DNA of 60,849 bases, counting the filler, from Fonticula-like sp. SCN 57-25 (Eukaryota): NCBI GenBank assembly GCA_001724245.1. It is 9 parts of 9 records of this genome, joined end to end, with 100 filler letters (N's around TTAATTAATTAA, not from the genome) between each part and the next. Parts side by side here need not be neighbours in the genome. Positions count along the whole stretch, not along the records: positions 27,914 to 36,273 come from MEDX01000505.1; 8 more parts are not named here. One strand, given 5' to 3'. The first letter of the stretch is position 1; each line of letters begins with the position of its first letter. Shown piece by piece: positions 5,911 through 57,738 of the stretch. The notes beneath the pieces are model-generated. The model was not told the origin of the DNA. It saw only the letters and a list, made by a program, of their open reading frames with translations, and ran no database searches. The translations under genes and the position numbers were made by a program.

Positions 5911-6010
5911 NNNNNNNNNNNNNNNNNNNNNNNNNNNNNNNNNNNNNNNNNNNNTTAATTAATTAANNNNNNNNNNNNNNNNNNNNNNNNNNNNNNNNNN
6001 NNNNNNNNNN
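5911..6010. other. Artificial contig spacer
   Basis: N run with TTAATTAATTAA (stops in all six frames). Confidence 0.98.
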
Positions 6011-12032: not shown

Positions 12033-12132
12033 NNNNNNNNNNNNNNNNNNNNNNNNNNNNNNNNNNNNNNNNNNNNTTAATTAATTAANNNNNNNNNNNN
12101 NNNNNNNNNNNNNNNNNNNNNNNNNNNNNNNN
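12033..12132. other. Artificial contig spacer
   Basis: N run with TTAATTAATTAA. Confidence 0.98.
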
Positions 12133-13850
12133 GTCAGGGAAACACCATTACTGTCCTTGAGTGTAGTTTGCAGTTTGCACATGCCAATGTCACATAGCCA
12201 TTCCTTAAAGGCCTCTCCTCGAAGGTCCTCCAATCCTGAAACAGATAGACAGTCTGTCAAGCTGTCAAGTGTCTGCGTGCAAACATGAATGATGCCGAGC
12301 AGTTCATTATGGCGCTCCATCATCTTGGTCAAATCACGTGACTGAGCAATATACTCTGCAGTTTGCAGTTCCTGAAGTGCCTTTTTCTCGCCCGCCACTA
12401 GCATGACTTAGTCAGTACATTGGCCACATGATACACCGTGCGCACATTTGGCCTCGAGGTCAGCAATGGATCGCTTCAGTTCCTGTTCACGTGACATACG
12501 CTGACATAATCCATCGTCTGCCTTGTCAAGTGATGCTTGAGTATCCTTCACTAGTGCCTGTGCCTCCGCCAGTCGCTCGCGGACGCATTCATGGGCGGGC
12601 AGCACTGCTTGAGGGGCAGTATATGATGCAATATGAGGATCAGTTTGCCACAATTCCACGAGACCATAACCAAGACCAACTGTGATGTTGCCAGAAGCAG
12701 CGTGATACGACAATGAATACACCTGCATAGCAACAAAAGTGAGCAAAAAAGAGACAATTGAAACACATACGGATTCACCACACTGGTAGTGTGCAGTTTG
12801 CACTCCATCAGAGGCGCGCCAAATACGGAGTGATTTATCATCTGACCCAGTGATCACGTGCGACTCGTCACCGAGAAAGGCGCCTCTTCTGACACAATCA
12901 GTGTGCCCCTTGAATGTCACGTGAGGAGTGGATGGCCACGTGATATCCGATGGAACATTCCAGATGGAAGCAGTCTCGTCAATACTTGTGGCCAATAGCA
13001 TACGGCCAGAGGGGCTGAAGCAGAGTGAAGTGATCTAGTAACGATTAGTATCCATATTGAGAATATATAGGCGAATATCGGTATCATACTTGATTAGAAT
13101 GATGCTTGTCATATGATACTTGCGCCCACTTGCCATTGGTCAATCCATAAATGTACACGTGGCCATCAGCACATCCCGCGGCAAGAAAATTCCCATTGGG
13201 AGAAAAGGCAAGACGCCACACCTGACATTTGCTTGTGAGCAACAGCAAAATGGAATATTCATTCATTCTCGTACGTAATGAGACAATCCAGTGAATGTTT
13301 GAATGACTGAATAGTTGTTTGATGGATCCAAAAGTGTCACTGCTTTATCACGTCCACCGACAGCAACGATCCCACTGGGACTGAACGCGCATCCAAACAA
13401 CTAGACAAGGGATGACTCGGATGAGCACAAAAAGAGAGGCAAACATGACGCATACACCCGCGTTGTTCTTGTACACGGTCGAGTGCGCTTTGTTGTTTCT
13501 AACTTCAATGACAGTGCCAATAAACGTCACGGCGACGAGACGCGTCCCGTCGGGCGACCACGCGACATCAAACACCTATTTCATGATGGTCAGAACAAAA
13601 GAAGGACATATGGGCACGTACTTCACCATCACACTTCAAAGTGTACACCTTTGCCTTCGTGGCCATACTGGTGATGCAGAGTGTACTGTCCCAACTGCCT
13701 GTTACCACCAAAGTGCCGTCGGGGGAAATCGCACACGCAGTCAGCTGCAAACGCTATCAGCATCAAACCAGCAGCGCATCAAAAGCAAAAAAGACGTACG
13801 TGTCCTGTGTGCGGTGTAATAGTCGCCTTCTTGACCAGTTGATTCGCCAT
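12133..13850 (-). CDS. WD40(7)-coiled-coil-SAM protein, copy 1 (3' end cut by spacer), 8 exons
   Basis: Spliced WD40 blades (CAISPDGT..TGSWD, AWSPDG, AFSPSG, AFSPNG, CFSPSG, GHTD..ITGSDDKSLRIW), heptad region, then start of SAM (EWLCDIGM). Confidence 0.85.
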
Positions 13851-17439: not shown

Positions 17440-19609
17440 TTAGGCCTGATTGTCAATGGGGGTCGTTCCACTCCACTTTGACACCCACGTGGCCTTGTCG
17501 CCATCTGTTTCGTTTCGCTTTGCCTTGACGAGGTTGATGAACTTTACTGCATCAGACACCTTGAGTGCTCCCTTAGATGCTTCAATGACACGTGGCGGTG
17601 AAAGTGAACACAATGCAGCACCATGCCAGCCAACAGCAGCAAGAGAAGCGAAAGGAGCATTAAGTGAATCAATCCAGTTTGCAGTTTGCACTTCGTCCCA
17701 TGATAGGACACTATCAGTGGGTGGGGCAAATGCGCTGTCATCACTCAACTTGGAATGTGCCATGTAGCCACGCAGTTGAAGGGCAGCAGCATCATTAAAT
17801 GACACACCAAATTCCATGACGTCACCCACATTGAGCATCGTCAGGGAAACACCATTAATGTCCTTCAAGGCAGTTAGCTGTTTGCTCATGCCAATGTCAC
17901 ATAGCCATTCCTTAAAGGCCTCACCACGAAGGTCCTCCAATCCCGAAACAGATAAGCAATCTGTCAAGCTGTCAAGCGTCTGCGTGCACACATGTATGAT
18001 GCCAAGTAGTTCATTATGGCGCTCCATCAGCTTGGTCAAATCACGTGACTGAGCAATATACTCGGCAGTTTGCAGTTCCTGAAGTGCCTTTTTCTCGCCN
18101 AGCAATATACTCGGCAGTTTGCAGTTCCTGAAGTGCCTTTTTCTCGCCCGCCACTAGCATGACTTAGTTAGTACTTCGTACTTTGGCCACATGATACACC
18201 GTGCGCACATTTGGCCTCGAGGTCGGCAATCGATTGCTTCAGTTCCTGTTCACGTGACATACGCTGACGTAATCCACTGTCTGCCTTTTCAATTGATGCT
18301 TGGATATCAGTGGCTTGTGCCTGCGCATATGATAGACGCTCGCGGACGCACTCATGGGCGGGCAGCACTGCTTGAGGGGCAGTATATGATGCAATATGAG
18401 GATCAGTTTGCCACATTTCAACTAGACCATTTTCAAGACCAACTGCAATGTTGCCAGACGCAGCGTGATACGACAATGACCACACCTGCAGACCAAATGG
18501 GTTAGTGAAATAAATAGAGAAAGCGTGACACACCTCTGCACCACATTTGTAGTTTGCAATTTGCACTCCATCAGAGGTGCGCCAAATAATGAAGCTATCA
18601 TCTGACCCAGTGATCACGTGCGACTCGTCACCGAGAATAGCGCCGCCATAGACGTAATGCGTGTGTCCCTTGAATGTCACGTGAGGAGTGGATGGCCACG
18701 TGGTATCAGATGGAACATTCCATATGGAAGCAGTCATGCCTTCACTTGTGACCAATAGCATACGGCCAGAAGGACTGAAGCAGAGCGTCGTGATCTAGTA
18801 ATAATTATTAGTCTTGAGCATATAAAAATATTTATCATACTTGACTAGAACGATGTTTGTTAGTTGATACTCGTGCCCACTTACCTTTGGTCAGCCCATA
18901 AATGTACACGTGGCCATCGCCACAGCCCGCGGCAAGAATATTCCCGTCGGGGGAAAATGCGAGACGATGCACCTGATAAGACATCGTGAGCAACAGCAAC
19001 AGCAAATAATCATAACTTTTAGTAACGCACATAATCAGACAATCCAGTCAATGTTTGAATGACTGAATATTTGTTGGATGAATCCAAAAGTGTCACTGCT
19101 TTATCACTTCCACCGACGGCAACGATCCCGCGAGGACTGAACGCGCATCCATACAACTAGACAAGGGATGAGCAAAGGAAGAGAGGCAAACATGACGCAT
19201 ACAGATGTGTTGACCCTGTACACGGTCGAGTGCGTATTGTTATTTGTGACTTGGATGACACTGCCACCACCAGTCACAGCGACCAGGCGCGTCCCGTCGG
19301 GCGACCACGCGACAACAGACACCTTAACGTGGTGTCAGATCAAAAAAAAAAAAGGACAGCCCGGCACGCCACGCACATAACCATCACACTTCATAGTGTA
19401 CATCTTTGCCTGCGTGGCAATACTGGTGATGCAGAGTGACCTGTCATCACTGCCAGTTGCCACCAAAGTGCCATCGGGGGAAATCGCACACCCATCCACC
19501 TGCAAACACAATCAGCATCAGACCAGCAGAACATCATCGAAAGCAAAAAAAGACGTACCGCCCCATCGTGCGGTCGAGTCGTCGCCTTCTTGACTAATTG
19601 ATGCGCCAT
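17440..19609 (-). CDS. WD40(7)-coiled-coil-SAM-SAM protein, copy 3
   Basis: Same exon structure. Contains a ~49-bp overlap duplication around a single N at 18100 (assembly artefact). Confidence 0.83.
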
Positions 19610-21832: not shown

Positions 21833-21932
21833 NNNNNNNNNNNNNNNNNNNNNNNNNNNNNNNNNNNNNNNNNNNNTTAATTAATTAANNNNNNNNNNNN
21901 NNNNNNNNNNNNNNNNNNNNNNNNNNNNNNNN
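21833..21932. other. Artificial contig spacer
   Basis: N run with TTAATTAATTAA. Confidence 0.98.
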
Positions 21933-22650: not shown

Positions 22651-22912
22651 GGAGTGATGTTAGGGTTATCGTGTATCTATTTATGTGTGTACTGTTTTGC
22701 AGGTGGCGGGAGATGCTGCCAGGATGTCTTTTTAGTTGTAGCAAATAAGAGTTTAATGATAAGAAGCAATAATAAAAGTTTTAGTGCATATACCATTTGT
22801 GCCAAGCTGTAGAATGCCGAAATTACACATTAAAAGAACACTTTGCGTGGCGTCAATGCTTATATAGGCGCCGTGACGTCGCGTCAGCTTGGTGTCACAT
22901 CTTGACGTAATC

Positions 22913-23839
22913 ATGTTTGCTTTCCTGTGGGCAGGGGTGGAGCCGTGGGTGTACGACAACACCGCGGCGCTCCTCATCTACCGCTGCATAAAATGGATAG
23001 CGCGCGTCTTTTTGGGCACCTTTGAAATCCAGCGCCTGCTGCAGGGGTCGTCGTCAGCATCGCCATTGCTTGTCGTCAAGATCGACAGGGCGATCCGGCA
23101 CTCGCATTCGCTTCGCTTTGTGCGCGAGGAGCTCACGGGAGAGTCGGCCGACGTGCGCCAGCTTGCAGTGGCGCTTGTGCTTGCAAAGCAGGCGCGCGTC
23201 CCGGTTAGCGAGGCGTCGCTGCGCCTACTAGAGGAATGTCTCGTGCAGATCCAGGCGGTCGAGCGCCTCAAGGTCGCGCTCGAGGCACTCCGATCGACGC
23301 GTGTTTCAACAACAGATCCCGACCATGTCTCGCTGCTGAACGACGTGTGGAGCGGCATTTTCCCTAATGAACCAGTCCCGCCGCTCGTGTCGCGCGAGTG
23401 GCAGCGGATCGGCTTCCAGGGCGACGATCCGTCGACCGACTTTCGCGGCATGGGCCTCCTGGCCCTCACGCAGCTCGCCTTCCTGTCTCGCACATACCCC
23501 GCGCTCGCTGCGTCGCTCGTGCGCGCGTCCAACGGCGACGGCAATGTTGCCTCTGGCCGCTGGTTCCCCTACGCGATCACCGGCGTGAACCTGACAAAGT
23601 TTGTGCTTGATGGCGTCACTTCGCGCCAAATGTACCCGCAGCTGTTTGCACGCGGGCCATCGCTGGTCGCTCTTAATGCGGCGTACACGTTTGCCTTTAC
23701 GCGGCTCGGCAATGAATGGGAGCGCGACACGCAAGTGCGCATCACGTCGTGGCCGCCGTTTTATAAACGCGTGTGCGCCGCCGTCCACGGCGATCTTTGC
23801 TCGACGGCCCTCCTCACGCCGCCGCAGATCGAGGCGTAG
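22913..23839 (+). CDS. ELMOD: ELMO domain-containing protein (ARF/ARL GAP)
   Basis: WQRIGFQGDDPSTDFRGMGLLAL..L; FPYAITGVNLT; intronless. Confidence 0.93.
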   Translation: MFAFLWAGVEPWVYDNTAALLIYRCIKWIARVFLGTFEIQRLLQGSSSASPLLVVKIDRAIRHSHSLRFVREELTGESADVRQLAVALVLAKQARVPVSEASLRLLEECLVQIQAVERLKVALEALRSTRVSTTDPDHVSLLNDVWSGIFPNEPVPPLVSREWQRIGFQGDDPSTDFRGMGLLALTQLAFLSRTYPALAASLVRASNGDGNVASGRWFPYAITGVNLTKFVLDGVTSRQMYPQLFARGPSLVALNAAYTFAFTRLGNEWERDTQVRITSWPPFYKRVCAAVHGDLCSTALLTPPQIEA

Positions 23840-27813: not shown

Positions 27814-27913
27814 NNNNNNNNNNNNNNNNNNNNNNNNNNNNNNNNNNNNNNNNNNNNTTAATTAATTAANNNNNNNNNNNNNNNNNNNNNNNNNNNNNNN
27901 NNNNNNNNNNNNN
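27814..27913. other. Artificial contig spacer
   Basis: N run with TTAATTAATTAA. Confidence 0.98.
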
Positions 27914-28797
27914 GTGTAGGATGTCTGCGAGACGGCGATGGCGAGGCCAATCGCGCACAGGAGAGAAACCGCAAATGAATAGTTCAAAATGGCCGACTGG
28001 GTCCGCGTCGTAGGCGGAAGAGTCACCAAATGCGGTTGCCCGGCGATGGGAGCACGCGGCTTGCCGTTGATCAGCAGCTCGCCGCTTCCTGCGGCCTTGG
28101 CGTCCACGGTCGACATCTCCATGGAGCTCGGCTCCTTGGAGACAGAGGCCGACGAATCCTCGCGCGCGAGACGGCGGCGAGAATAGAAAAAGGCCAACTC
28201 GGAGACAAGAAAGATCGCAAGCGAGCCCACCCACATCGCGATAAGGACCATCGTAGCCGTCGACGCGTCGTTGCGGACAACATAGGGGTCCTAGAGCGGG
28301 AGGAATGGCATGAGCAAATCGAAAAAAATAAAAAATAAAACCCGCTTTGGACGTACCAGGATGCCCGTAAGAAAGGTGGCGAGAGTGACCGAGATGATGG
28401 CATAGCGAAGGAAGCTGTGCATGGCGTCGTAAAGCGTCTGGCTGATGGCGCGGCCGCGTCGAACCATAAAGTTCAGGACGATTTGAACCACGACGCGCAC
28501 GACAATGAGCACGACGTCAACGATGCCGAGAATCGAGTGAACAGACTTGAAATGAGGCATGAGGTGGTTGTTGTTGTTGACAATGGCAATCCCCAGGGCA
28601 GCACCCAGGAAAATGAGCGTGAACAGCATCATCACCTGGAGTGTCAGGCGGTACCCCAGGGGGACGTGCGCGCCCTGAAAGCGGCTCGAGTGCAGGAAAA
28701 TGGCAAGCCCATAGCAAACCGGCACAGCCACCACACCAAGCACAGCGTGCAGGTTGCTGTACTCTTCCCACGTCGCTCGCTCCACCACGGCCGCCAT
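27914..28797 (-). CDS. Cytochrome b561-like fusion membrane protein, copy A (3' end cut by spacer)
   Basis: Exon 1 28797-28357, intron 28356-28291; paralogous to the N-terminus of 29871-32937 (LHAVL, HFKSVHSILG, AMHSFLRY). Confidence 0.8.
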
Positions 28798-29870
28798 CTT
28801 GTGCGGGGACTCGAGGGGGAGGCAAACCAACCGGAAACTGGAGTGCAACACGATTGGATGCCAGCCAAAAGGAATTTCAATCGACCGTTTCCTCCAATCA
28901 CACGCCTTATCAGTAGGGGGCTCTGCCTAAAAAGGACGTTCTGGGATGGACGGGCTTCGCGGGCTGCTTGGCTGATGGCGCTGTGGTCAAGGTCAAGGAC
29001 CAAACGTAGTACAGCATAAAAATTTAGTGGCATAGAGTGGCAGATGAGAAGGAGCCGTGCTCGCACCTTGATTCTCGACTATGAGATGATGGCAGTTGAC
29101 CTCCGATAAGCGGATTCGCGGCCCGCCGCCAGCGGCCCCTGCGCGATTCGTAACGTATGCCGCCGCGCTGATGCTATGTCATTTTAAAACTAATATCCGC
29201 CGTGAATTAGTTGGCGACTGTGATACCCAGCGCCATTGGCTTGCTCTGATTGCAGCGAAACGGTGGCGCGCCTGCCGACGGCGACGCCGCGACGTGGCGG
29301 GCCGGCGGCGGAGGCTCCTTCAGCTGCCGGTGTCATTCGAGACTTGATAGCGTCAGCCCAATACTTATTACTCGTTTGCTGCTTTCTCGATATCTCGACC
29401 TTTCAGGCGCTCGCGGCTGGTGAATTACGTGGCAGCGACTGAAACTGAAAATGTCCGATTCGGTCTGTTGTGTGTTGCACGCCTGTGGATCTGCCGGCGC
29501 CGCCGGCGCGCCGCGCCGCCCGCGCGCCCACTCATTTGCGACCTATGGTACTTTCGTTTGGATACCTTCTCGTGATAGCACTGCTGCCTTTATGGAGCTG
29601 AGACGATCCCCTATGTGGCTGCCCACCGTCCCTCGGTGCGCGCTGGAGCTCGCGCTCGAGCTTGGCGCGCGCCTTGCCTCAATCTGATTTGTTTTTTGTA
29701 AAAAGGCTTTCCTGAGTACTCTTCCATTTAATAAAAGGCATCACATGCGTAATTTTGGCGGATATATTGGGATATAAACTACTGCTATTGGTACTTGAAA
29801 CAGGGATATGCGACGCACTCGGGATGCAAGTGGCATACAGCAGACTTGCGCTGTCGACTTGTGATTCGAC

Positions 29871-32800
29871 TCACAGAGTAAAATGAATCGCATCGAGGAT
29901 GGCAGCATCCGGGTCGAGGCTGTGGGAAAACGCGCGAATACGCGACGGTGCCACCGACATGTGAGTATCGTGGCTCGCAATATCACGCGCAAACTCGTGC
30001 AACTGCGATGCCTGTCGCTGGAGCTGAGCGCCCGTCGCCAGGGACGACAACTCGACAACCTCCGCGCCCTCGGTGCCCTTCTCACTCGGACGAATAGAAC
30101 TATCAAATTCCAAACGCGCGATCAAAGCCTCAAAGTACTCAATATCGGCCATCAGGTTAGACACCGCCTCGATCGATGTCTCATCGTCATAGTTCTTCAG
30201 CGACTCGAGCAAGCCACGGCTGTGTTCAACTGCCGCGCGGAAGCGATCGATAGATTTCAAGTTGACCTCTGCAGCCACGTTATCTTCAACTGTTCCAGCC
30301 ACCGAGCGCTGGCGCTTGAAAACGCAGGGCGGGCCCTTGTCGAGGGACGGCTTGCCGTTCCCATATTCCTTGCATGCTTTTTCCACGCGCTTATAGATGC
30401 CGTACTGCGCCATGAACGAGTAAAACTGCGCGTAGATGATGAGCGCAGTAAAGGTGACGAGCGCAATCACAATGAGGCCCATCTCGTGACCACGAGCAGC
30501 AAGGATATAGATCGCCCAAACGTCGTTGACCAAGCGTGAAATGACGTAGCAGACGAGGGACACTCTCATAATGCGCCGCACGGTCAAGGGGTTGCCGCAC
30601 AGGCGATACGCGGCGAGCGCGACAAACGTAGGCATCTCCACATACACAAAGACAATCATCAGAACGCAGTACTCCCAGACGGCCGTCGACTTGATGTCCG
30701 GCGGATAGATTGATATAAGGAACAGGCACGTTGTCGCAAGGTGGTGCGCCAAAGTCGACACGCTCACGTCGCAGCGCACAATCAGCTCGCATATATACAT
30801 GATGATTGTGTAGTAGGACAAGGCAGCAAAGTAGACGAGATGTGGGCCGATGAACTCGCCCTTGACCCATGTCAGCCAAATGACCCGAAGGAACAGGACG
30901 AGAAAGATGACCTGCACAATGATCTCGATAAAATACCCAATGACCAGGCGCTTCTTCTCCATCGAGAGTTCCACATAGTGCACCGAGACACGAACGAGAA
31001 TCGCGTTGATAATCCAGAACGCCGCATACCACACCAAAAACGCCGCAACGACAAAGCCGGGCTCAAAGACAATGTTGTACGCAAACACATCTTCCAACTT
31101 GAAGGTGTACTCAATATCAAACGACGAAATGTTGGCGCACACCAGTGGAGTCATATCGCTCGTCGGCCAGTACATCACGCGAACGCTGCACGCCTCGTTG
31201 ATCGCCGGATCAAGACCACCGTAAATGCGAACGCCAGCCGTGGCAGATGACGTGTTATAGGTGCACGAGATGCGGATGGTGTCGTGTTGCTCAAACACAT
31301 GCGCCTCGCCCGGCATTGGCTGATGCGCGGCATACGACATCGGGTCTGTGCTTGAAAAGTTGCTGTTCACAAACGACGGGCCTGCAGCGCCGTCCTTGTG
31401 CACCGTGTACAGACTCACTGAATCGGCGAATTGGTAGGCCGAGTACCCATACGATACCACACGAAGGGGTTCGTAAATAAATACGTCGGTGAACCGCGGA
31501 GCGCAGTAGCTGGTGTACTCGGTCGAAGGCTCCCCTCCCGGAATCGAAAACTCGTATGGAAAGCCGCCCAGCGCCAAAAAGCCAATGTCGAACGGGCGCA
31601 GAGCCTTGGTCAGCGACAACTCAAATGACGGGCGCTCACTACTCGTCGGAATAGAAAGATCGGGCGAGCCCATGTAGATATACGACAGCTGAATGGTCAA
31701 TACCTTGAGCGGCGTGTTGACATTGGCGCCGGACGAGATCAGGACACCGGCCTCGGGCGCAAATGCAATCGCGCACTCTGCGGCGGACTGCCCGCGCATA
31801 CATGTCTGCACCATTCGCATTGCCTGGGGATTTTGAACACGCGAGCAGCGGCCAACAGCATCCTCCAGAACGCCTGCTGTGGAGGCGAACAGGGTCATGG
31901 AAACAAACGTAGGCGACGTATCAAGCACCGTGTCCACCGCCGTGATGTGATAGTTATCATCGTCCGGCAGGCGAAATGTCTGGCAGAACGAGTGCACTGA
32001 TCCGGCCAACGAGCCAGGTGTCGCCGTCGCGTTAAAAGCGCCCAATTTCACAGAGAATCGCGTCGTCGCCTCGGGGATGGCCACGTAGGTCGTCTGCGAA
32101 ACGGTGACGGCGAGACCAATCCCGCACAGGAGGGACAACGCAAACGTGGTATTCAAGATCGCCGACTGGGTCCGTGTGGGCGGCGGAACGGCATGGTGTT
32201 CTCCCGCAATCAAGGCACGCGGCCTGCCATTTATCAGCTGGTCGCTGCTCTGTACGCCGCTTTTCAACTCATCGCTCGCCATCTCTGATTTGCTGGGGTC
32301 GGCAGAGACGGACGACGACGACACCTCGCGCGCTAGACGACGGCGAGAATAAAAAAAGACCATTTCCGAGATGAGGAAGATGGCAAAAAAGCCAACCCAC
32401 ATCGCTACCAGGATTATGGAGGCCGTTGTCACGTCGTTGCGAACAACATAGGGGTTCTATAGCAGCGGTTAGGTAAAAAAAGCGCAATGCTACAAAGCGT
32501 ACCAAGATGCCCGTGAGGATAGTCGCAAGAGTGACCGAGATCATGGCGTAGCGAAGGAAGCTGTGCATGGCGTCGAAGAGCGTTTGGCTAATGGCGCGGC
32601 CGCGTCGAACCATAAAGTTTAGGACGACCTGGATCATCATGCGGACAACCATGAGCGCAACGTCAACGATGCCGAGAATCGAGTGAACAGACTTGAAATG
32701 AGGCATAAAGTGGGTATTGTTGTTGACGATTGCGACTCCCAAAGAGGCGCCCAGCAAGATGAGCGTGAAGAGCCAAACGGTTTGGCGAGTTAGGCGGTAT

Positions 32801-32937
32801 GCCAGGGTGACTTGAGCGCCCTGAAAGCGGCTGAGAAAGACGACAATACCAAAACACACGGGCAAAGCAGCCACGCTGAGCACAGCGTGCAGGCTGCTGT
32901 GCTCTGCCCACGTTGCTCGCTCCACCACAGAGGCCAT
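29871..32937 (-). CDS. ~1006-aa polytopic protein: cytochrome b561-like + copper type II monooxygenase-like (no Cu ligands) + TLC-like TM domain + cytosolic coiled tail, copy B (complete)
   Basis: Exon 1 32937-32503, intron 32502-32457, exon 2 32456-29871. FCQTFRLP...YHIT, FSIPGG....C, DTIRISCTYNT...GG.....EAC...MYWP; LAHHLA and EMPTF in the TM region. Confidence 0.8.
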
Positions 32938-33869
32938 CGTCGGCGGGGCGAAAGGCAGGGGGGAAGCAATTTCACTGGCATCCAATCGCTGAGGCCATCT
33001 CGGACGCTGATTGGCTGCATCAGATGAGACTGATAAGACTGGAGAAATTGGAGAATCGAACCGGGGGGATAGGGGTATGATTCCAGGTAGGGCCGTTTAG
33101 CACCCCTCGCGAGCCCCTGCGCAACTTATCGAGCGCGACACGACACCCTTCCGAAGCATGGACGCGGGCGCGGCAGGTACACCGGCACAGTGCCATCAGG
33201 CTGCCCCATGGTAAGCGGGAGTCTAGCAAGTGATCTCGGCGATCGCTCTCGCCTGCGACTACGGAGTGCCGCATCTCCCGACGTATATGGCGTACGGAGT
33301 GCTGCTGTGCGGTTAGCCACTCACGCGAAGACAACAGATGGTCGCTCGAGGTCGCCAGCTCTGCTCATTTGCGCCGCTGACTGCGCATCATTTGTAGTGC
33401 CGCTGGCGGCGCTGGTGCGTCGTCGTATGCCGCAATGATCAGGGTCTGGCGGTCGCGGTTTGTGCTGTGAATGAATGACTGCAACAGCTCGGTGACAGCG
33501 CGCTCTCGGCGATGATTCTTGCCCCTTATCACGGCCGCCAGTGGATAGCCGCCGTCGTTTCTTCGTGTTTGGATGTGGGCCGCCGCGCACTATTTTTATT
33601 ATATTATTGCTTCGGATGAATATGCATGATAAAAGATGACATTATTATTCCGACATAGTAATATATAACTGGGTAAGTAATGAATCCATATTATCAAATA
33701 CAATTAACACGGATAAGGCATGCAAAATCATAGAACAGCGAACCGGCCGCTCAATACACAAAAATGTTGACACATCATTGCAAACTTAAACATCATTGCA
33801 AACTTAAAGCGCATGCGCGCCAGATATATCCTATTCTATAATTATGTAAAGACTCTAGAGTGTAATCAA

Positions 33870-36273
33870 TCAAAGCGAATAATCCAGCGCGTCGAGTACG
33901 TCTGCGTCCGGGTCGAGGCTGTGCGAGTTTGCGCGGATACGCGACGGCGCCATCAAGCCGTGCGGAATATCATGACCGGGAACGTCGCGCGCAGGCTCGG
34001 TACCCGTGTTGGCCAGCGACATCTGCCGCTTGAACAATGCAAACGTCGGCAGAGATGTCAACTCGACGCTCTGATTGCCCTCGCCGTCCCTATGACTCTG
34101 CGGGACAACAGCGTCAAACTCCAAGCGCGCGATCGAAGCCTCAAGATACTCGATATCGGCGACCAAGTTGGCCATGGCCTCGATCGACGCCTCATCGTCA
34201 TTGTCCTTTAGTGACGCTAGAATCGTGCGGTTGTGCTCGATCTTGTGGCTGAGCCGATCAATGGTCTCAGAGTGGAGTTCAGCGGCTTCGATCTTGGCAG
34301 CCACAGAAGCCTGGCGCATGAGCACGCCGGGCGGACCCTTGCCGGGCGGGCCCTTGCCGGCCGATGGCTTGTTGGCGCGCTCGAGCTCCTTGCATGCCTT
34401 GTCGACGCGCTTGTAGATGCCATACTGCGCCATGAACGAGTAAAACTGCGCATAGATGATGAGCGCCGCAAAGATGACGAGCGCAATCACAATGATGCCC
34501 ATCTCGCCACCACGAGCAGCAAGAATGTAGATGGCCCAAATGTCGTTGACCGCGCGCGTAATGATATAGGTGACAATAGAAACCTGCATGACGCGCCGCA
34601 CAATTACAGGGTTGCCGCAGAGACGGTAGGCGACCAGCGCGACAAATGTCGGCATCTCGAAAAACACAAAGACAATCATCAGGACGCAAAACTCCCATAC
34701 GGCCGTCGACTTGATGTCCGGCGGATAGATAGCAATAAGGAAAAGGCAGGTTGTCGCAAGGTGGTGCGCCAGGCTCGACACGCTCACGTCGCAGCGCACA
34801 ATCAGCTCGCATATATACATGATAACTGTGTAGTAGGACAAGGCAGCAAAGTAGACCAGATGGGCGCCAATAAACTCGCCCGTGACCCACGTCAACCAAA
34901 TGACCCGAAGGAACAAGACGAGAAAGATCACTTGCACAACGATCTCGATAAAATACCCGAGTACGAGGCGCTTCTTCTCCATAGAGAGATCCACGTAATG
35001 AACCGAGACGCGAACGAGAATCGCGTTGATGATCCAAAAGGCCGCATACCACGCGAGGAACGAAGCAATGACAAAGGCAGGCTCGTACGCGATGCTGTAC
35101 GCAAACACATCTTCCAACTCAAATGTGTACTCGATATCAAATGAAGAAATGTTGGCGCACACAAGCGGGATGAGCTTGCTCGTCGGCCAATACATCACGC
35201 GGACGCTACACGCCTCGTTGATCGCGGGATCAAGGCCGCCTGAAATGGAAACGCCCGGCGACGCAGATGACGTGTTATAGGTGCACGAGATGCGGATGGT
35301 GTCGTGCTGCTGAAACTGGTACTTTTCGCCCGCCATCGGCTGATGCATCGTATACGACATAGGGTCCTTGCTCGAAAAGTTGCTGTTTACAAATGTCGGG
35401 CCCGCGCTGCCGTCCTTGTGCACCGTGTAAAGACCAACGGAATTGGCATACTGGTACGCAGAGTAGCCATAGGACACGACGTGCAGAGGCTCGGCGATAA
35501 AGGCGTCGGTAAACCGAGGGGCACAGTAGCTCGTGTACTCGGTCAAAGACTCGCCACCGGGAATGGAAAACTCGTAGGGGAAGCCGCCCATGGCAAGAAC
35601 ACCAATGTCATACGGGCGCAGCGCCTTGGTCAGCGACAGCTCAAACGACGGGCGATCGCTGTTTGTCGGGATGGAAAGATCGGGTGCGCCCATATAGACA
35701 TACGACAGCTGAATCATCAGCACCTTTAGCGGCGTGTTTACTTTGACCCCGGATGATATCAGGACGCCGGCCTCGGGCGAAAAAGTAATCGCGCAATCCG
35801 CGGCTGTTTGCCCGCGCGTACACATCTGCACGAGCTGCATCGCCTGGGGATTCTGAACGCGCGCGCAGCGATTCACCGTGTCAAGACTACCAGCGGAGGA
35901 TGCATAGAGCGCCATAGACACGAATGTCGCCGACGAGTCGAGCACAGTGTTTACCGCCGTGATATGGTACATGGCGTCGTCCGGTAGGCGGAACGTCTGG
36001 CAGAAGGAGTGGATCGAGCCGGCCGACGAGCCTGGCATCGCCGTCGCGTTGAAAGCCGCCAGCTTTACAGAAAACGGCATTGTCATCTCAGGGATGGCTC
36101 TGTAGGACGTCTGCGAGACGGCAATGGCGAGACCAACAGCAAACGCAAGGGCCGCGCCAAAGGAAGCAATCAAAACGAGCGACTGCACTGGCGTCGGAGG
36201 CGATACGTGCACGGGCGATAAAGCTTCCTTCACCAGCTGCAAGAGCTGTTCGGTGCTGGAAGCGGCTGATTTC
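33870..36273 (-). CDS. Same fusion family, copy C (5' end cut by spacer)
   Basis: 790-aa ORF collinear and highly similar to copy B exon 2. Confidence 0.82.
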
Positions 36274-36373
36274 NNNNNNNNNNNNNNNNNNNNNNNNNNN
36301 NNNNNNNNNNNNNNNNNTTAATTAATTAANNNNNNNNNNNNNNNNNNNNNNNNNNNNNNNNNNNNNNNNNNNN
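36274..36373. other. Artificial contig spacer
   Basis: N run with TTAATTAATTAA. Confidence 0.98.
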
Positions 36374-38835: not shown

Positions 38836-41675
38836 ATGGCCACCGACGACGAGGTGCGCGCGGCGGGAGCAATAGGAAGCGGGAGGGGAAGGGCCAGGTT
38901 GTTTGTGTCTCTTTTACTGACTATTTTTTCTTTTTTGTGTAGATGAAGCGCATGCTTCATAACCTGCAGATTCAGGTTGCAGAATCGAACGGCCGCCAGG
39001 AAGAGCGCGTGCGTACTCCCTCATTTTTTTCCAAAGTAGTTCGAGCCTGTTGTACTGACGAGCGTGAATTGCGTAGATTCGCGGTCTGGAGTCCCTCATC
39101 CTGCGCCAGGATAACATGCTCCAGTCTCTGCTTCAGCAGCAGATGGAGCTCCGCCACGCCATCCGCGTGTCCGAGTACGTGCACCAGCAGGAGCGCATGC
39201 TCAGCCACCAGCAGGCTAGTCTTATGGGCGACCTTCGCGTACGCCCCCCTTCCCTTTCTCTTTCTTTTCCCTTGCTAATGCTCGCTCTTTTTTCAGGGCT
39301 CCGATGGCTCTTACAGCCACCACCACCACGGTGCCGAGCACCACCACCGCCACGGTGCCGACCACGGCATCTCGGCGCACACCAACGCCCCCCCGGCTGC
39401 CTCGGTCAACTATGGTCTTAGCTATGACTCGCGCAACCCCGTTGCTGGCTCCTACGACCCCCGCAACCCCGCCACCGGCGCCTACAGCTCCAACGTGTAC
39501 AACCCCCTCAACAACAACGCGTATGGCGCGAACGCGCACGGCCCGAACGCCTATGTCGCTCAGGCGCCGATCGCCGGCCAGGTCACCGACCACCGCCCCT
39601 CTGCCCCGGTGCCGTACAGCGGCTCTTCCAGCCAGCTCGCCTCGCCCGTGACGCGCAGCGCCGCCCCCGGCATGCCGCAGCCCGCCGGCTATGGCAGCAT
39701 CCGCCACGACCCCGGCCGCCTCCCCCCGGCGCGCACCGGCCTTGACGGCAGCAACGTGCCCGAGTCGGCCCGCCGCGCCGCGCGCCCGACGCTGCTCCCC
39801 GCCAAGTCGTTCGCCCCCGACCGCGACACGCTTGCCGTGTACAAGGCGATGAAGGGCCTCGGCACGGACGAGCGCCGCATCATTGACATTCTCGGCCACC
39901 GCTCTGCCGCGCAGCGCGCCGCCATCGCCGAGACGTTCCAGCAAAACTACAAGAAGAAGCTGACGGACGCGCTCGCGAGCGAGCTCTCCTTCAACTTTAA
40001 GGCGGTCACCCTCGCGCTCATGAAGCCCCCGGCCGTCTACGACGCCTGCGAGGTCCGCGACGCCGTCAAGGGCGCCGGCACGGACGACGCGACGCTCATT
40101 GAGGTTCTGTGCGGCCGCAACAACCAGCAGATCCGCGAGCTCAAGGACGCCTACCAGAAGGAGTTTAGCCGCGACATCGTTGCTGATGTGACGGACGACA
40201 CCTCGGGCGACTACCAGAAGCTGCTTCTCGAGATCCTCAAGGGCCAGCGCGAGCCCGAGGGCCCCGTCAACGAGGCTGCCGCCAAGGAGGACGCTGCGCT
40301 GCTGTACAAGGCCGGCGAGGCCAAGATCGGCACTGACGAGGACACGTTCATCCGCATCCTCACGACGCGCAGCTTTGCGCACCTGCAGGCGGTCATGGGC
40401 CACTACCAGAAGCTGAGCGACTATGACATTGAGCGCGCCATCAAGAAGGAGATGTCGGCCAACCTCAAGCGCGCGCTCGTGAGCATCTGCCAGTTTGCCC
40501 GCAACCCGTACGAGTACTATGCCAACCGCCTCGAGAGCATGATGAAGGGCGCCGGCACCAACGACAAGGGCCTCATCCGCATTATTGTCTCGCGCTGCGA
40601 GATTGACCTCGGCAACATCAAGGCCGAGTATTTCACGCTCTTCAAGCGCTCGCTCGAGGCCGCCGTCAAGTCTGAGACGTCTGGCAACTACCGCGAGATG
40701 CTCAACGCGCTCATCTCGGGCGACGAGAGCGGCTTCAACCCCGAGGTTGACGCCAAGACGCTCCGCCGCGCCATGAAGGGCATTGGCACCGACAATGACA
40801 AGCTCATGCAGGTGCTCGGCACGCGCTCGAACGAGCAGCGCCAGATGATTGCCGCCGCCTACAAGAGCGCGTACCAGCGCTCCCTCCGCGAGGACCTCCG
40901 CAAGGAGACGTCGGGCGACTTTTCCAAGCTGCTCGACTGCATGATGATGACGCCGCCGCAGCTTGACGCGTGGACCGTGAACCGCTGCGTCAAGGGCCTC
41001 GGCACTGACGACGACACGCTCATCGAGGTGCTGTGCACGCGCTCCAACATGGAGCTGCGCGCCATGATGGAGGAGTACAAGGTGCTCTTCAACAAGGACT
41101 GCGTCGCCGACGTTCGCGACGACACCTCGGGCGACTACCAGGACCTTCTCCTTGCCCTTCTCGCCGCCCAGCGCGACGAGAGCAACATGGTCAACCCCGT
41201 CGCCGCCAAGGAGGACGCCTCTGCGCTCTACAAGGCCGGCGAGGGCAAGGTCGGCACCGACGAGAAGGCCTTCATCGACATTCTCACGCGCCGCAACTTT
41301 TACCAGCTGCGCCTCGTCTTTGACGAGTACGACAAGATGTGCGACTACTCGCTCGAGGCGTCCATCAAGCGCGAGACGTCGTTCAACTTTAGGCGGTGCC
41401 TCATCGCCATCGTGCGCGCGGTCCGCGAGCCGGCGGCGTACTTTGCCGAGCGCCTCATGCAGTCGATGAAGGGCGCGGGCACCAACGACCTGCAGCTCAT
41501 CCGCGTCATCCTCAACCGCAGCGAGGTCGACATGGCCGACATTCGCGATGTCTACCACAAGAACTACAAGATGTCGCTCGAGAAGGCCATCGAGAATGAT
41601 ACCAGCGGCTTTTACAAGAAGCTGCTCATCAAGATTATCGAGTACTGGACCGGCAGCGCGCCCATGGCCTTTTAA
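38836..41675 (+). CDS. Eight-repeat (double-core) annexin with coiled-coil/His/Pro-Tyr-Gly-rich N-terminus, ~874 aa
   Basis: Exons 38836-38853, 38943-39008, 39077-39238 and 39297-41675, all phase 0; eight GxGT(D/N) endonexin motifs. Confidence 0.95.
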
Positions 41676-42247: not shown

Positions 42248-42347
42248 NNNNNNNNNNNNNNNNNNNNNNNNNNNNNNNNNNNNNNNNNNNNTTAATTAAT
42301 TAANNNNNNNNNNNNNNNNNNNNNNNNNNNNNNNNNNNNNNNNNNNN
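42248..42347. other. Artificial contig spacer
   Basis: N run with TTAATTAATTAA. Confidence 0.98.
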
Positions 42348-48220: not shown

Positions 48221-48320
48221 NNNNNNNNNNNNNNNNNNNNNNNNNNNNNNNNNNNNNNNNNNNNTTAATTAATTAANNNNNNNNNNNNNNNNNNNNNNNN
48301 NNNNNNNNNNNNNNNNNNNN
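48221..48320. other. Artificial contig spacer
   Basis: N run with TTAATTAATTAA. Confidence 0.98.
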
Positions 48321-54176: not shown

Positions 54177-54276
54177 NNNNNNNNNNNNNNNNNNNNNNNN
54201 NNNNNNNNNNNNNNNNNNNNTTAATTAATTAANNNNNNNNNNNNNNNNNNNNNNNNNNNNNNNNNNNNNNNNNNNN
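54177..54276. other. Artificial contig spacer
   Basis: N run with TTAATTAATTAA. Confidence 0.98.
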
Positions 54277-56346: not shown

Positions 56347-57621
56347 TCACTGTAGCAACTCGTCGCGCTGCTTCTGGCGGCGGACCGTCTCGTTGAGGGG
56401 CAGCAGGATGAACTTCCAGATGTACAGGGCGCCGGCGGCGATCAGGACCAGAAGAAGGATGATCGACGCGGCGCAGCCAGACGGGACGCTCGAGGCATTG
56501 AAAAGCGTCTAAAGAAAGTTAGTACAAGGAAAACTGCAAATCAGATTGCAGTTTGCATGAAACAAAGTTGGTTTGGTCCAACACAATAACAGAGACATGC
56601 ACATTGAACACACAGCGACTAAAATAATGTGCAAACTGAACATTGTTTGCATGAACAAAGCGCACAAACTAAACACATTTGGCCCAAACAAAGTGCAAAC
56701 TGAATGTAGTTTGCACACACACAACAACATACAACCACACTGTATCAAACTTTCCTCCTGCCCTGCTTCTGATCTTTCCTTCGACGTACGAGGTAAGAGG
56801 CAGCCACGTGATAGAGGAAGACAGCGACGGGTCCCTTCCAGTCCTTTTTAATGAACGAGTCGAACGCGATCACCATCCAGATGATGTGCAGCATGTTGAA
56901 GAGGAGCGTCGTCACGGCGTAGATAAAGTAGGTCGAGACGTTGGGGCATGACGGGCAGGGAAGGAAGCCGGGGCCGATCGACTCGGCCAGCGCAGAGATG
57001 AATGACACAAGGCTGCTCATGAAGCCAAAGCCAAAGCCGCTAACAAAGGCGTACTCGAGCGCGTTGTACGCAGAGTTGGGGTTCGTCGCGACGAGATTGA
57101 GGCCGCGGGATGACTTGCTGTGAACGACAAGATGGCGTAAGAAATGGACAGAAATACATGTAAAGACACGAAAAGCACAAAAAATAATGACAATTAACGC
57201 GAAAAGGAGGGCAAAAACACGCTCAAAAGCGTCGATCACAGTCAAGCAACATCAGCAACAACAGCGTCAACACCGACATCATTCCACAACGTACGAGAAA
57301 AGAAAGTAGTAGAGCCAGCGGAAAAGCTCCTGGAAACCGACCGAAAAAGGGATCTGGAACGCAAAGACAAAGTGCATTTGCGGGATAATGAACCAAAACA
57401 CCGACGCAAAGAGCATCGAGGCGAGCCAGAAGAAGGCGCTGGAAAGGGGCGCCCCAGATCAGCCGACGCCATGCCAAGGGAGATGTTGAGGGCAAATATG
57501 AGTCGTACCTCATAATGAAAAGGATCACGAGGTGAGCCTGGGGGGCCACATGAGTGATAAAGAGCGCCAGTGGCGGTCCGTAGGCCGTAAAAAGACACCC
57601 GAAAAACGTTGCGAGACCCAT
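56347..57621 (-). CDS. APH1: Gamma-secretase subunit APH-1, multi-exon
   Basis: FFGCLFTAYGPPLALF; AFFWLVS; V.FQELFR; AFVSGFGFGFMS (GxxxG); LAESIGPG; LHIIW; YHVAASYL. Confidence 0.9.
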
Positions 57622-57738
57622 GGCGGCGCCGCTGTCCTCAGTCAAACACAATAGCAGGCGATCAGCCAATCAGATTCAAACATACAGTCAGCATTGGAGT
57701 CGTGACGTCATCGAGTCCCTCTGCCGGTAGACGCGGCC

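Follow-up and report, generated by a model that had tools for sequence, protein, structure and literature searches.

What kind of protein do three similar genes lying head to tail on one contig of an uncultured protist encode, and are a cytochrome b561, a copper monooxygenase-like fold and a lipid-handling membrane domain really joined in it, as an earlier note on this DNA had proposed? The locus lies within a stretch of 60,849 nucleotides (hereafter the window) from assembly GCA_001724245.1, deposited as Fonticula-like sp. SCN 57-25, in which positions 27914-36273 correspond exactly to one 8360-bp contig (MEDX01000505.1) of a metagenome bin. Its source is an uncultured single-celled eukaryote known only from that bin. 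Our analyses show that the locus is a tandem family of at least three paralogs encoding a polytopic membrane protein of ~1006 amino acids (aa), in which a b561-derived bundle would be followed by a PHM/DBH-fold domain devoid of copper ligands, predicted to be luminal, and by a seven-transmembrane (7TM) domain with the fold of TLC proteins and ceramide synthases. The protein is built from known folds, one of them forming a TLC-fold subfamily that Pfam does not recognise. Our confidence in this three-domain architecture is higher than that in the functional reading proposed below.

All three copies are encoded on the minus strand. Copy B is complete (1006 aa) and copies A and C are cut by the contig ends, so that their truncation is not biological. 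The coordinates, reading frames and motifs agree with what the earlier note had described for three same-strand paralogs: LHAVL, HSILG, AMHSF, LAHH, EMPTF, RQRS and RQAS are all present in copy B, together with six N-x-S/T sequons. Sequences from other assemblies extend the two truncated copies. The protein P0002 is identical to copy C letter for letter (by eye) and carries 48 extra N-terminal residues; the 1396-nucleotide (nt) metagenome contig L001, the one relative found among 302 pattern matches of a metagenome locus scan, is copy A from another assembly and prolongs it by 117 residues into the PHM-like domain, with the same FVSM replacement. Copies B and C share 82% nucleotide identity (1755 columns) and copies A and B 75% (905 columns). 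The ratio of nonsynonymous to synonymous substitution rates (dN/dS) is 0.19 for exon 2 of B and C, 0.18 for exon 1 of A and B, which encodes the b561 part, and 0.29 for the start of exon 2 of A and B, and all three copies are under purifying selection. Having diverged under such selection, they are real paralogs and not chance similarities or collapsed assembly duplicates. Constraint varies along exon 2 of B and C, with values of 0.11 in the PHM-like domain, 0.16 in the 7TM domain, 0.29 in the tail and 0.54 in the linker.

The existence of a fusion depends on how exon 1 and exon 2 are connected. The introns of copies A and B interrupt the gene at the same phase-0 codon boundary, differing in length (66 vs 46 nt) and in sequence between conserved flanking coding regions; protein conservation between A and B ends at the GT and resumes right after the AG; the read-through tails of the two exon-1 open reading frames (ORFs) are unrelated; and no Met occurs in exon 2 until halfway through its first helix. 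Because of this shared intron site, these limits of conservation, the unrelated tails and the missing start, we infer that both exons are spliced into one 1006-aa polypeptide. The Pfam b561 match, moreover, runs through exon 1 up to its end (profile positions 1-130 of 137). A 162-aa b561-type ORF found on other contigs of 4555 and 10850 nt (P0037 / P0043), 47-48% identical to exon 1, drops out of conservation at the same splice position; P0037 is probably exon 1 of a further, more divergent member of the family or of an ortholog. In copy A, the passage from exon 2 through the intron to exon 1 is bridged in contigs of other studies (X4 record 17, covering 27980-28543 with 0 differences, and X2 record 9) and also in L001. 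Since this junction recurs in other runs, the adjacency of both exons in the DNA is not an assembly accident.

The N-terminal module derives from cytochrome b561, as the earlier note had supposed for this bundle. Cytochrom_B561 (PF03188), with a cut-off of 23 bits, scores 31.2 bits on copy B and 41.9 bits on copy A (on a 145-aa reference at 28333-28767, most of exon 1), and P0037 has a precomputed PF03188 label. Hydropathy indicates five hydrophobic segments in the b561 part, before the cytosolic linker, versus six helices with a four-helix core in b561, and one more segment, the transmembrane (TM) anchor TM-f, before the luminal domain. According to the accessible text of PMC10691727, the b561 family has four universally conserved heme histidines, H1 and H3 serving the non-cytoplasmic heme and H2 and H4 the cytoplasmic one. 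Assigning them by helix order and Pfam coordinates in an alignment of A, B and P0037, we find H1 (H17) and H3 (H85) invariant in all three sequences, a second helix without any histidine (H2) in all three, and H4 (H125) kept in A and B and replaced by Arg in P0037. The H1-H3 spacing of 68 matches that of the bovine numbering. Two histidines of the luminal loop just before H3, H76 and H80, are also invariant in 3/3, and no other stretch of the module is as well conserved as this loop; a histidine in the luminal loop of Dcytb binds metal together with ascorbate (PMC10691727, accessible part). Since H2 is absent from 3/3 sequences and H4 from 1/3, the canonical two-heme path across the membrane looks broken, and the luminal face appears to be what selection has preserved.

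The second module, a domain of ~290 aa, has the PHM/DBH fold including an N-terminal subdomain missed by Pfam, which bears out its earlier assignment to the DBH/PHM/MOXD1 type. Cu2_monoox_C (PF03712; cut-off 23 bits) matches copy B with 26 bits and copy C with 31.2 bits, and the domain reaches 85.5 and 97.8 bits with a profile made from five true monooxygenase modules; PF01082, the N-terminal Cu2 monooxygenase domain, gave no match at E<=1 in the Pfam search of the window protein. A full HMMER scan of 1.84 billion representatives with a paralog profile of exon 2 (E<=0.001) yielded 32 matches, one of them self; six of the 31 others span profile positions 156-446, and 6/6 carry both Cu2 monooxygenase Pfam domains. 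Foldseek aligns the AlphaFold2 (AF2) model of this domain (predicted local distance difference test, pLDDT, 69.9) with human DBH (4zel, E 9.1e-17) and rat PHM (~3e-15) at a probability of 1.00. All 27 rows listed in ranks 1-31 are DBH or PHM, with E values from 9.1e-17 to 4.5e-12, and the TM-score normalised by PHM length is 0.64-0.71.

In 5/5 true modules, the six ligand columns of this fold are H,H,H,H,H,M. Copies B and C have V,S,S,S,Y,A there and copy A, as far as its sequence extends, V,S; a MAFFT alignment gives the same loss. These columns represent the CuH (three His) and CuM (two His and Met) ligands, roles with which the titles of PDB entries among the Foldseek matches agree (H107A/H108A/H172A 'no CuH', M314I). 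Four of the six Cys columns common to the five true modules are retained in B and C. With all six copper ligands lost, the luminal domain cannot be a copper monooxygenase, and its dN/dS of 0.11 makes it a conserved pseudo-monooxygenase, not a decaying domain. The earlier idea of an electron carrier fused to its normal client is thus not supported on either side, the client being without its six copper ligands and the b561 part without H2 (3/3) and H4 (1/3). One of the matched proteins, P0004 (1215 aa), is a doubled DBH-like monooxygenase, its single chain holding a tandem pair of DOMON + Cu2_monooxygen + Cu2_monoox_C modules.

The third module is the 7TM domain. Its AF2 model, made with family members as alignment, has seven helices, a pLDDT of 89.8 and a predicted TM-score (pTM) of 0.85. 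Structural alignment of this model with 48,161 PDB representatives places CerS6 (Z 17.6, root-mean-square deviation (rmsd) 3.1 A, 224 residues) and yeast ceramide synthases (Z 15.7 and 15.1) in the top three, followed by TMEM120A (Z 13.3 and 13.0) and ELOVL7 (10.8). In a second-look alignment, ceramide synthases take all of the first six places among PDB entries (Z 15.1-18.0, rmsd 3.1-3.6 A, 218-230 of 256 residues, TM1-TM7); seven TMEM120A/B entries aligned from TM2 on come after them, and the next score (8.5) belongs to an unrelated row. Overall, CerS6 aligns with Z 17.6-18.0 and rmsd 3.1-3.3 A over 224-230 residues, and the yeast enzymes with Z 15.1-15.9. This is strong model-based evidence for a TLC/ceramide-synthase fold, and not proof of homology.

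Conservation within the family converges on a similar set of residues. In model numbering, H117/H118, the HH pair of TM4 (model helix 112-129), are kept in 25/26 and 24/26 family sequences, and E153 (TM5) and R164 in 26/26 each; Y100 and E103 in TM3 and Q223 in TM7 are further family-conserved polar residues. As described in the accessible text of PMC11919693, CerS6 has His211/His212 in TM4, Asp239/Asp242 in TM5, Tyr189 in TM3 and Arg275; His211 is the residue acylated in the enzyme intermediate, and the cavity is open towards the cytosol. The HH/E/R/Y set parallels these CerS6 residues, E153 corresponding to Asp239/242 by helix index only. TLC proteins beyond ceramide synthases also act as acyltransferases, TLCD1 and CLN8 being acyl-CoA-dependent (PMC11838012; PMC13661276; accessible parts). 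Two family members, from Hondaea and Monoraphidium, bear the UniRef label 'TLC domain-containing protein'. Source labels within the family conflict, with 'uncharacterized membrane protein (UPF0136 family)' from JGI for P0026 and TLC from UniRef for P0017 / P0031. A phmmer search of PDB sequences returned no b561, PHM or CerS entry, only a chance match to Pumilio (E 1.2) and matches to MscS (E 0.04-0.2).

The distribution of charges suggests how these modules are arranged about the membrane. Lysine plus arginine residues number 3, 3 and 5 on inner loops versus 1, 1 and 1 on outer ones, a positive-inside pattern by which the N-terminus is predicted to lie outside, the domain bearing the cysteines and sequons in the lumen and the tail in the cytosol. 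Ceramide synthases have their N-terminus in the lumen and their C-terminus in the cytosol, the same orientation as that deduced here. Being anchored by TM-f on one side and linked within ~25 residues to TLC TM1 on the other, the PHM-like domain would therefore be held at the luminal face, beside both the barrel and the b561 bundle. The tail does contain the RQxS motifs attributed to it earlier (RQRS and RQAS, basophilic phospho-site motifs) as well as a conserved helical stretch, and may be regulatory.

Relatives of the 7TM domain are found across distant eukaryotes. The remaining 25 of the 31 non-self HMMER matches span profile positions 457-734; most are proteins of ~190-480 aa, the long ones being P0007 (955 aa) and P0010 (891 aa). 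Their named sources are Creolimax fragrantissima (the two best matches), Scenedesmus, Monoraphidium, Hondaea and Cavostelium, all of these relatives being 'hypothetical' or automatically named only. The family thus spreads over an ichthyosporean, a labyrinthulomycete, an amoebozoan and green algae, with a large luminal domain in two lineages. The Scenedesmus protein (P0010) consists of a signal peptide, a degenerate PHM-like domain with Gln at the Met ligand column and then the 7TM domain, without b561, and a single BLASTP high-scoring segment pair (E 5e-16) runs from its last PHM-like motif through the 7TM domain. As Scenedesmus shares this junction, the pair of copper-less PHM-like and TLC domains is older than the organism studied here. 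No relative with b561 was identified by a profile scan covering exon 2 only and an exon-1 search that gave only A, B and P0037, and word-indexed homolog searches returned nearly only the locus itself (2 proteins of 8000 candidates scored, 4 of 7999 and 3 of 1716). We found no description of a b561 + PHM/DBH + TLC architecture in the literature searches made, and an automatic annotation of it may already exist.

We favour, with moderate confidence, the reading that the protein is an acyltransferase of a divergent TLC type, whose luminal and heme modules are non-catalytic accessories. The TLC-like barrel would be the catalytic engine, an acyl-CoA-dependent acyltransferase: acyl-CoA would reach it from the cytosolic side, and its acyl group would be loaded onto the first histidine of the HH pair in TM4 and then passed on to a lipid acceptor, as shown for CerS6. 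The copper-less PHM-like domain, pinned to the membrane at both ends, could act as a luminal lid or as a ligand-binding or assembly part. The b561 remnant would be a heme-bearing structural or sensing accessory and not a trans-membrane electron pump feeding copper.

Several observations weigh against this acyltransferase reading. The TLC profile (PF03798) matches neither the window protein (E<=1) nor any of 26 family members (E<=10), so that the earlier suggestion of a TLC-like 7TM domain stands by its structure, the position of HH and the UniRef labels of two relatives, and fails by profile. Foldseek found no match for the 7TM model at E<=0.001 (probability 0.93-0.96 but E>0.3); helical bundles can reach Z ~14 without homology, as the alignment tool itself notes, and Z 18 is good, not overwhelming. 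Of the profiles named in the earlier note, Cytochrom_B561 and Cu2_monoox_C gave matches and Cu2_monooxygen and TRAM_LAG1_CLN8 did not, and AlphaFold with Foldseek led to DBH/PHM for the luminal domain, whereas it was structural alignment that led to CerS6 for the 7TM domain. The HH pair is equated with His211/212 of CerS6 by helix index and collinearity, not by residue superposition, and the model of the PHM-like domain is of moderate confidence. A redox or metal function may persist at the invariant luminal His cluster, and H4 in copies A and B leaves room for a second heme with unusual ligation. The strong selection on the PHM-like (0.11) and b561 (0.18) modules calls for a specific role, which the acyltransferase reading leaves vague. 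Finally, both the splice and the function are read from sequence and structure.

Other explanations must be weighed against the same evidence. The protein might be a non-enzymatic sensor, receptor or scaffold, one that binds a ligand through its PHM-like ectodomain, senses or binds lipid in its TLC-like barrel and signals through its phosphorylatable tail. Residues that define catalysis or ligation have indeed gone from two of the three modules, the conserved RQxS sites and helical stretch of the tail would suit signalling, and an older 'lipid-sensing domain' idea for TLC survives in a reference title within PMC11919693 (accessible part); but the HH/E/R/Y set, kept in 24-26 of 26 family members, is an active-site rather than a passive-binding pattern, and the TLC proteins tested so far are acyltransferases, as far as the accessible text of PMC11838012 reports, which leads us to consider such a sensor rather unlikely. 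We are more doubtful still of a working redox machine close to that imagined in the earlier note, with b561 heme(s) and the luminal His cluster serving a non-copper site in the PHM-like domain, coupled to TLC lipid chemistry. It would account for the invariance of H1, H3, H76 and H80 in 3/3 sequences, for the luminal loop being best conserved and for the dN/dS of 0.11-0.18 on the PHM-like and b561 modules, and the metal-binding luminal histidine of Dcytb, which acts with ascorbate, and the luminal beta-sandwich domain adjoining the non-cytoplasmic heme in CYBDOM proteins (both PMC10691727, accessible part) offer precedents. Yet six of six copper-ligand columns are replaced, the canonical two-heme path is broken by the absence of H2 in 3/3 and of H4 in 1/3, and the Scenedesmus homolog pairs a copper-less PHM-like domain with TLC without any b561.

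Two further explanations concern the gene rather than its product. We consider it very unlikely that there is no three-part fusion and that exon 1 forms a small b561-like gene of its own, lying upstream of a PHM-like/TLC-like gene independent of it: gene callers do split the ORFs (P0035/P0036 vs P0001/P0002) and the splice is deduced from DNA sequence, but a GT..AG intron occupies the same phase-0 site in two paralogs, conservation ends exactly at GT and restarts exactly after AG, exon 2 offers no start codon until halfway through a helix, and the Pfam b561 match stops at 130 of 137, at the exon end. An assembly chimera or a decaying pseudogene array is hardly credible, even if the metagenome bin is fragmented and the copies break the assembly at both contig ends, where the read-assembly joints reflect only paralog similarity. 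Frames are intact over 1006, 800 and 125(+117) codons, dN/dS is 0.18-0.29, and the same junctions occur in contigs of other studies and in L001. Taking the favoured acyltransferase further, the locus could represent a new class, a TLC-fold lipid acyltransferase gated from the luminal/extracellular side by a single-heme b561 remnant with a conserved His-rich metal loop and by a copper-less PHM-fold ligand-binding domain. We hold this extension to be improbable; if true, it would be a redox-, metal- or ligand-controlled lipid-remodelling enzyme, and the only fusion of b561 with a PHM/DBH fold that turned up in the searches made.

The view of TLC proteins as general acyltransferases is recent (CerS6 in 2024, TLCD1 and CLN8 in 2025-2026, according to the accessible literature), and this locus family is a natural test of control of a TLC barrel from its luminal face. 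It also offers a clear case of a PHM/DBH fold that has lost all its copper ligands and is still kept under strong selection, next to a b561 module pared down to the luminal pair of histidines. When functionally linked folds are found fused, 'Rosetta-stone' fashion, the fusion alone is no proof that their ancestral chemistry persists.

The positions of the features discussed are gathered in Table 1. The window consists of nine contigs (5.9-9.7 kb each) joined by eight identical 100-nt spacers, N44 + TTAATTAATTAA + N44; the runs of N belong to these spacers and do not hide any sequence. Since contigs of a metagenome bin have been strung together here, genes on either side of a spacer cannot be read as neighbours, and the flanks of the contig that carries the locus, bounded by spacers, hold no synteny information. 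The other contigs encode typical eukaryotic genes by Pfam (glycogen phosphorylase, trehalase, ELMO/CED-12, Aph-1, PIG-U, Rad51 and an eight-repeat annexin). The annexin is an unbroken frame of 798 aa at 39279-41672 (+), matched by Pfam in eight stretches (E 1.2e-169), its eight repeats being double the usual four-repeat core. Two 208-aa frames of one contig, 12411-13034 (-) and 18171-18794 (-), have identical WD40/beta-propeller Pfam matches and match positions and may be a local duplication. ELMO/CED-12 lies at 22877-23836 (+), and Aph-1, a gamma-secretase subunit, is split over two frames at 56748-57669 (-), with a probable intron. Together with Creolimax as best source of 7TM matches, Aph-1 and ELMO/CED-12 would fit a holozoan-like or other non-fungal protist. 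Among public DNA runs, a bioreactor metagenome is the richest in matching sequence (0.95 of sampled words), and aquatic, wastewater, 'fungus' and soil metagenomes have smaller word shares; the public runs listed include no RNA run. Compared with the window, contigs from other runs show insertions of 8, 2 and 8 nt upstream of copy A (28938-28959) and an 18-nt deletion downstream of copy C (33772), which is strain-level variation confined to intergenic DNA.

Table 1. Parts of the three gene copies, and spacers of the window (positions along the whole window)
Feature	Position	Strand	Description
Copy B exon 1	32503..32937	-	145 aa; b561-derived four-helix core (TM-a to TM-d)
Copy B intron	32457..32502	-	Putative; 46 nt, GT..AG, CTAAC branch-like box, phase 0 after ..TGIL
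Copy B exon 2	29871..32456	-	861 aa (to 29874) + stop; open frame from acceptor AG
TM-e, fifth helix after b561 core	32364..32426	-	Full-length residues ~156-176; predicted by hydropathy (2.47) and positive-inside pattern
Cytosolic linker	32157..32363	-	Predicted; ~69 aa, fast-evolving; 9 K+R, dN/dS 0.54
TM-f, anchor into lumen	32088..32156	-	Predicted by hydropathy
Luminal PHM/DBH-fold domain	31095..32087	-	Predicted luminal; two beta-sandwich halves without copper ligands; Pfam PF03712, HMMER, Foldseek
Seven-helix TLC/ceramide-synthase-fold domain	30327..31094	-	AF2 model and structural alignment
HH codons	30741..30746	-	Exon-2 H571/H572 = full-length 716/717, predicted TM4; candidate acyl-accepting pair
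Cytosolic tail	29874..30326	-	Predicted; ~150 aa, RQRS and RQAS sites, conserved helical stretch, conserved C-terminal motif; dN/dS 0.29
Copy A exon 1	28357..28797	-	147 aa, b561-like, ATG at 28797
Copy A intron	28291..28356	-	Putative; 66 nt, GT..AG, contains in-frame stop
Copy A exon 2 start	27914..28290	-	First 125 aa, then contig end
Copy C exon 2	33870..36273	-	800 aa (36272..33873) + stop; N-terminus cut by contig end; PF03712 31.2 bits
Spacers	5911-6010, 12033-12132, 21833-21932, 27814-27913, 36274-36373, 42248-42347, 48221-48320, 54177-54276		

Set beside known systems, the protein combines resemblance and departure in each of its parts. Like ceramide synthases and other TLC proteins (CerS6, yeast Lac1/Lag1, TLCD1, CLN8), it has a seven-helix fold aligned over TM1-TM7 (Z 15.1-18.0, 218-230 residues), and its HH pair in predicted TM4, acidic residue in TM5, TM3 Tyr and conserved Arg parallel those of CerS6 (PMC11919693, accessible part); a C-terminal tail that bears phospho-site motifs and would lie in the cytosol is a further common feature. 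Unlike them, it gives no PF03798 match and shows 6-10% identity in structural alignments, has Glu-x-Pro-Thr-Phe in place of the Asp pair of the Lag1p motif and has no Hox-like domain, carrying instead a large luminal domain and a heme module fused N-terminally. TMEM120A/B (TACAN) and ELOVL7 resemble it in their six-helix barrel (Z 12.8-14.8 and 10.8), and the title of a TMEM120A entry in PDB names an H196A/H197A mutant; in contrast to ceramide synthases, however, they align only from model residue ~40 (TM2-TM7) and with lower scores. With PHM, DBH and MOXD1 it shares the two-subdomain beta-sandwich core, a Pfam C-domain match and four of six Cys columns; it differs from them in its replaced ligands (HH to VS, H to S, HxH to no His, M to A), in having no DOMON and no N-domain Pfam match, and in being tethered to the membrane at both ends. 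As in CYBDOM-type b561 (PMC10691727, accessible part), the first helix of the b561 part already belongs to the core and the N-terminus is placed outside, and like b561 and CYBDOM proteins the protein matches PF03188, keeps H1 and H3 and has a luminal beta-sandwich in the same polypeptide. By contrast, it has five helices by hydropathy and not six, H2 is absent and H4 is not conserved, and the accessible text of PMC10691727 excludes sequences without the four histidines from the b561 family. Where CYBDOM proteins have a DOMON domain as luminal partner, the partner here has the PHM fold.

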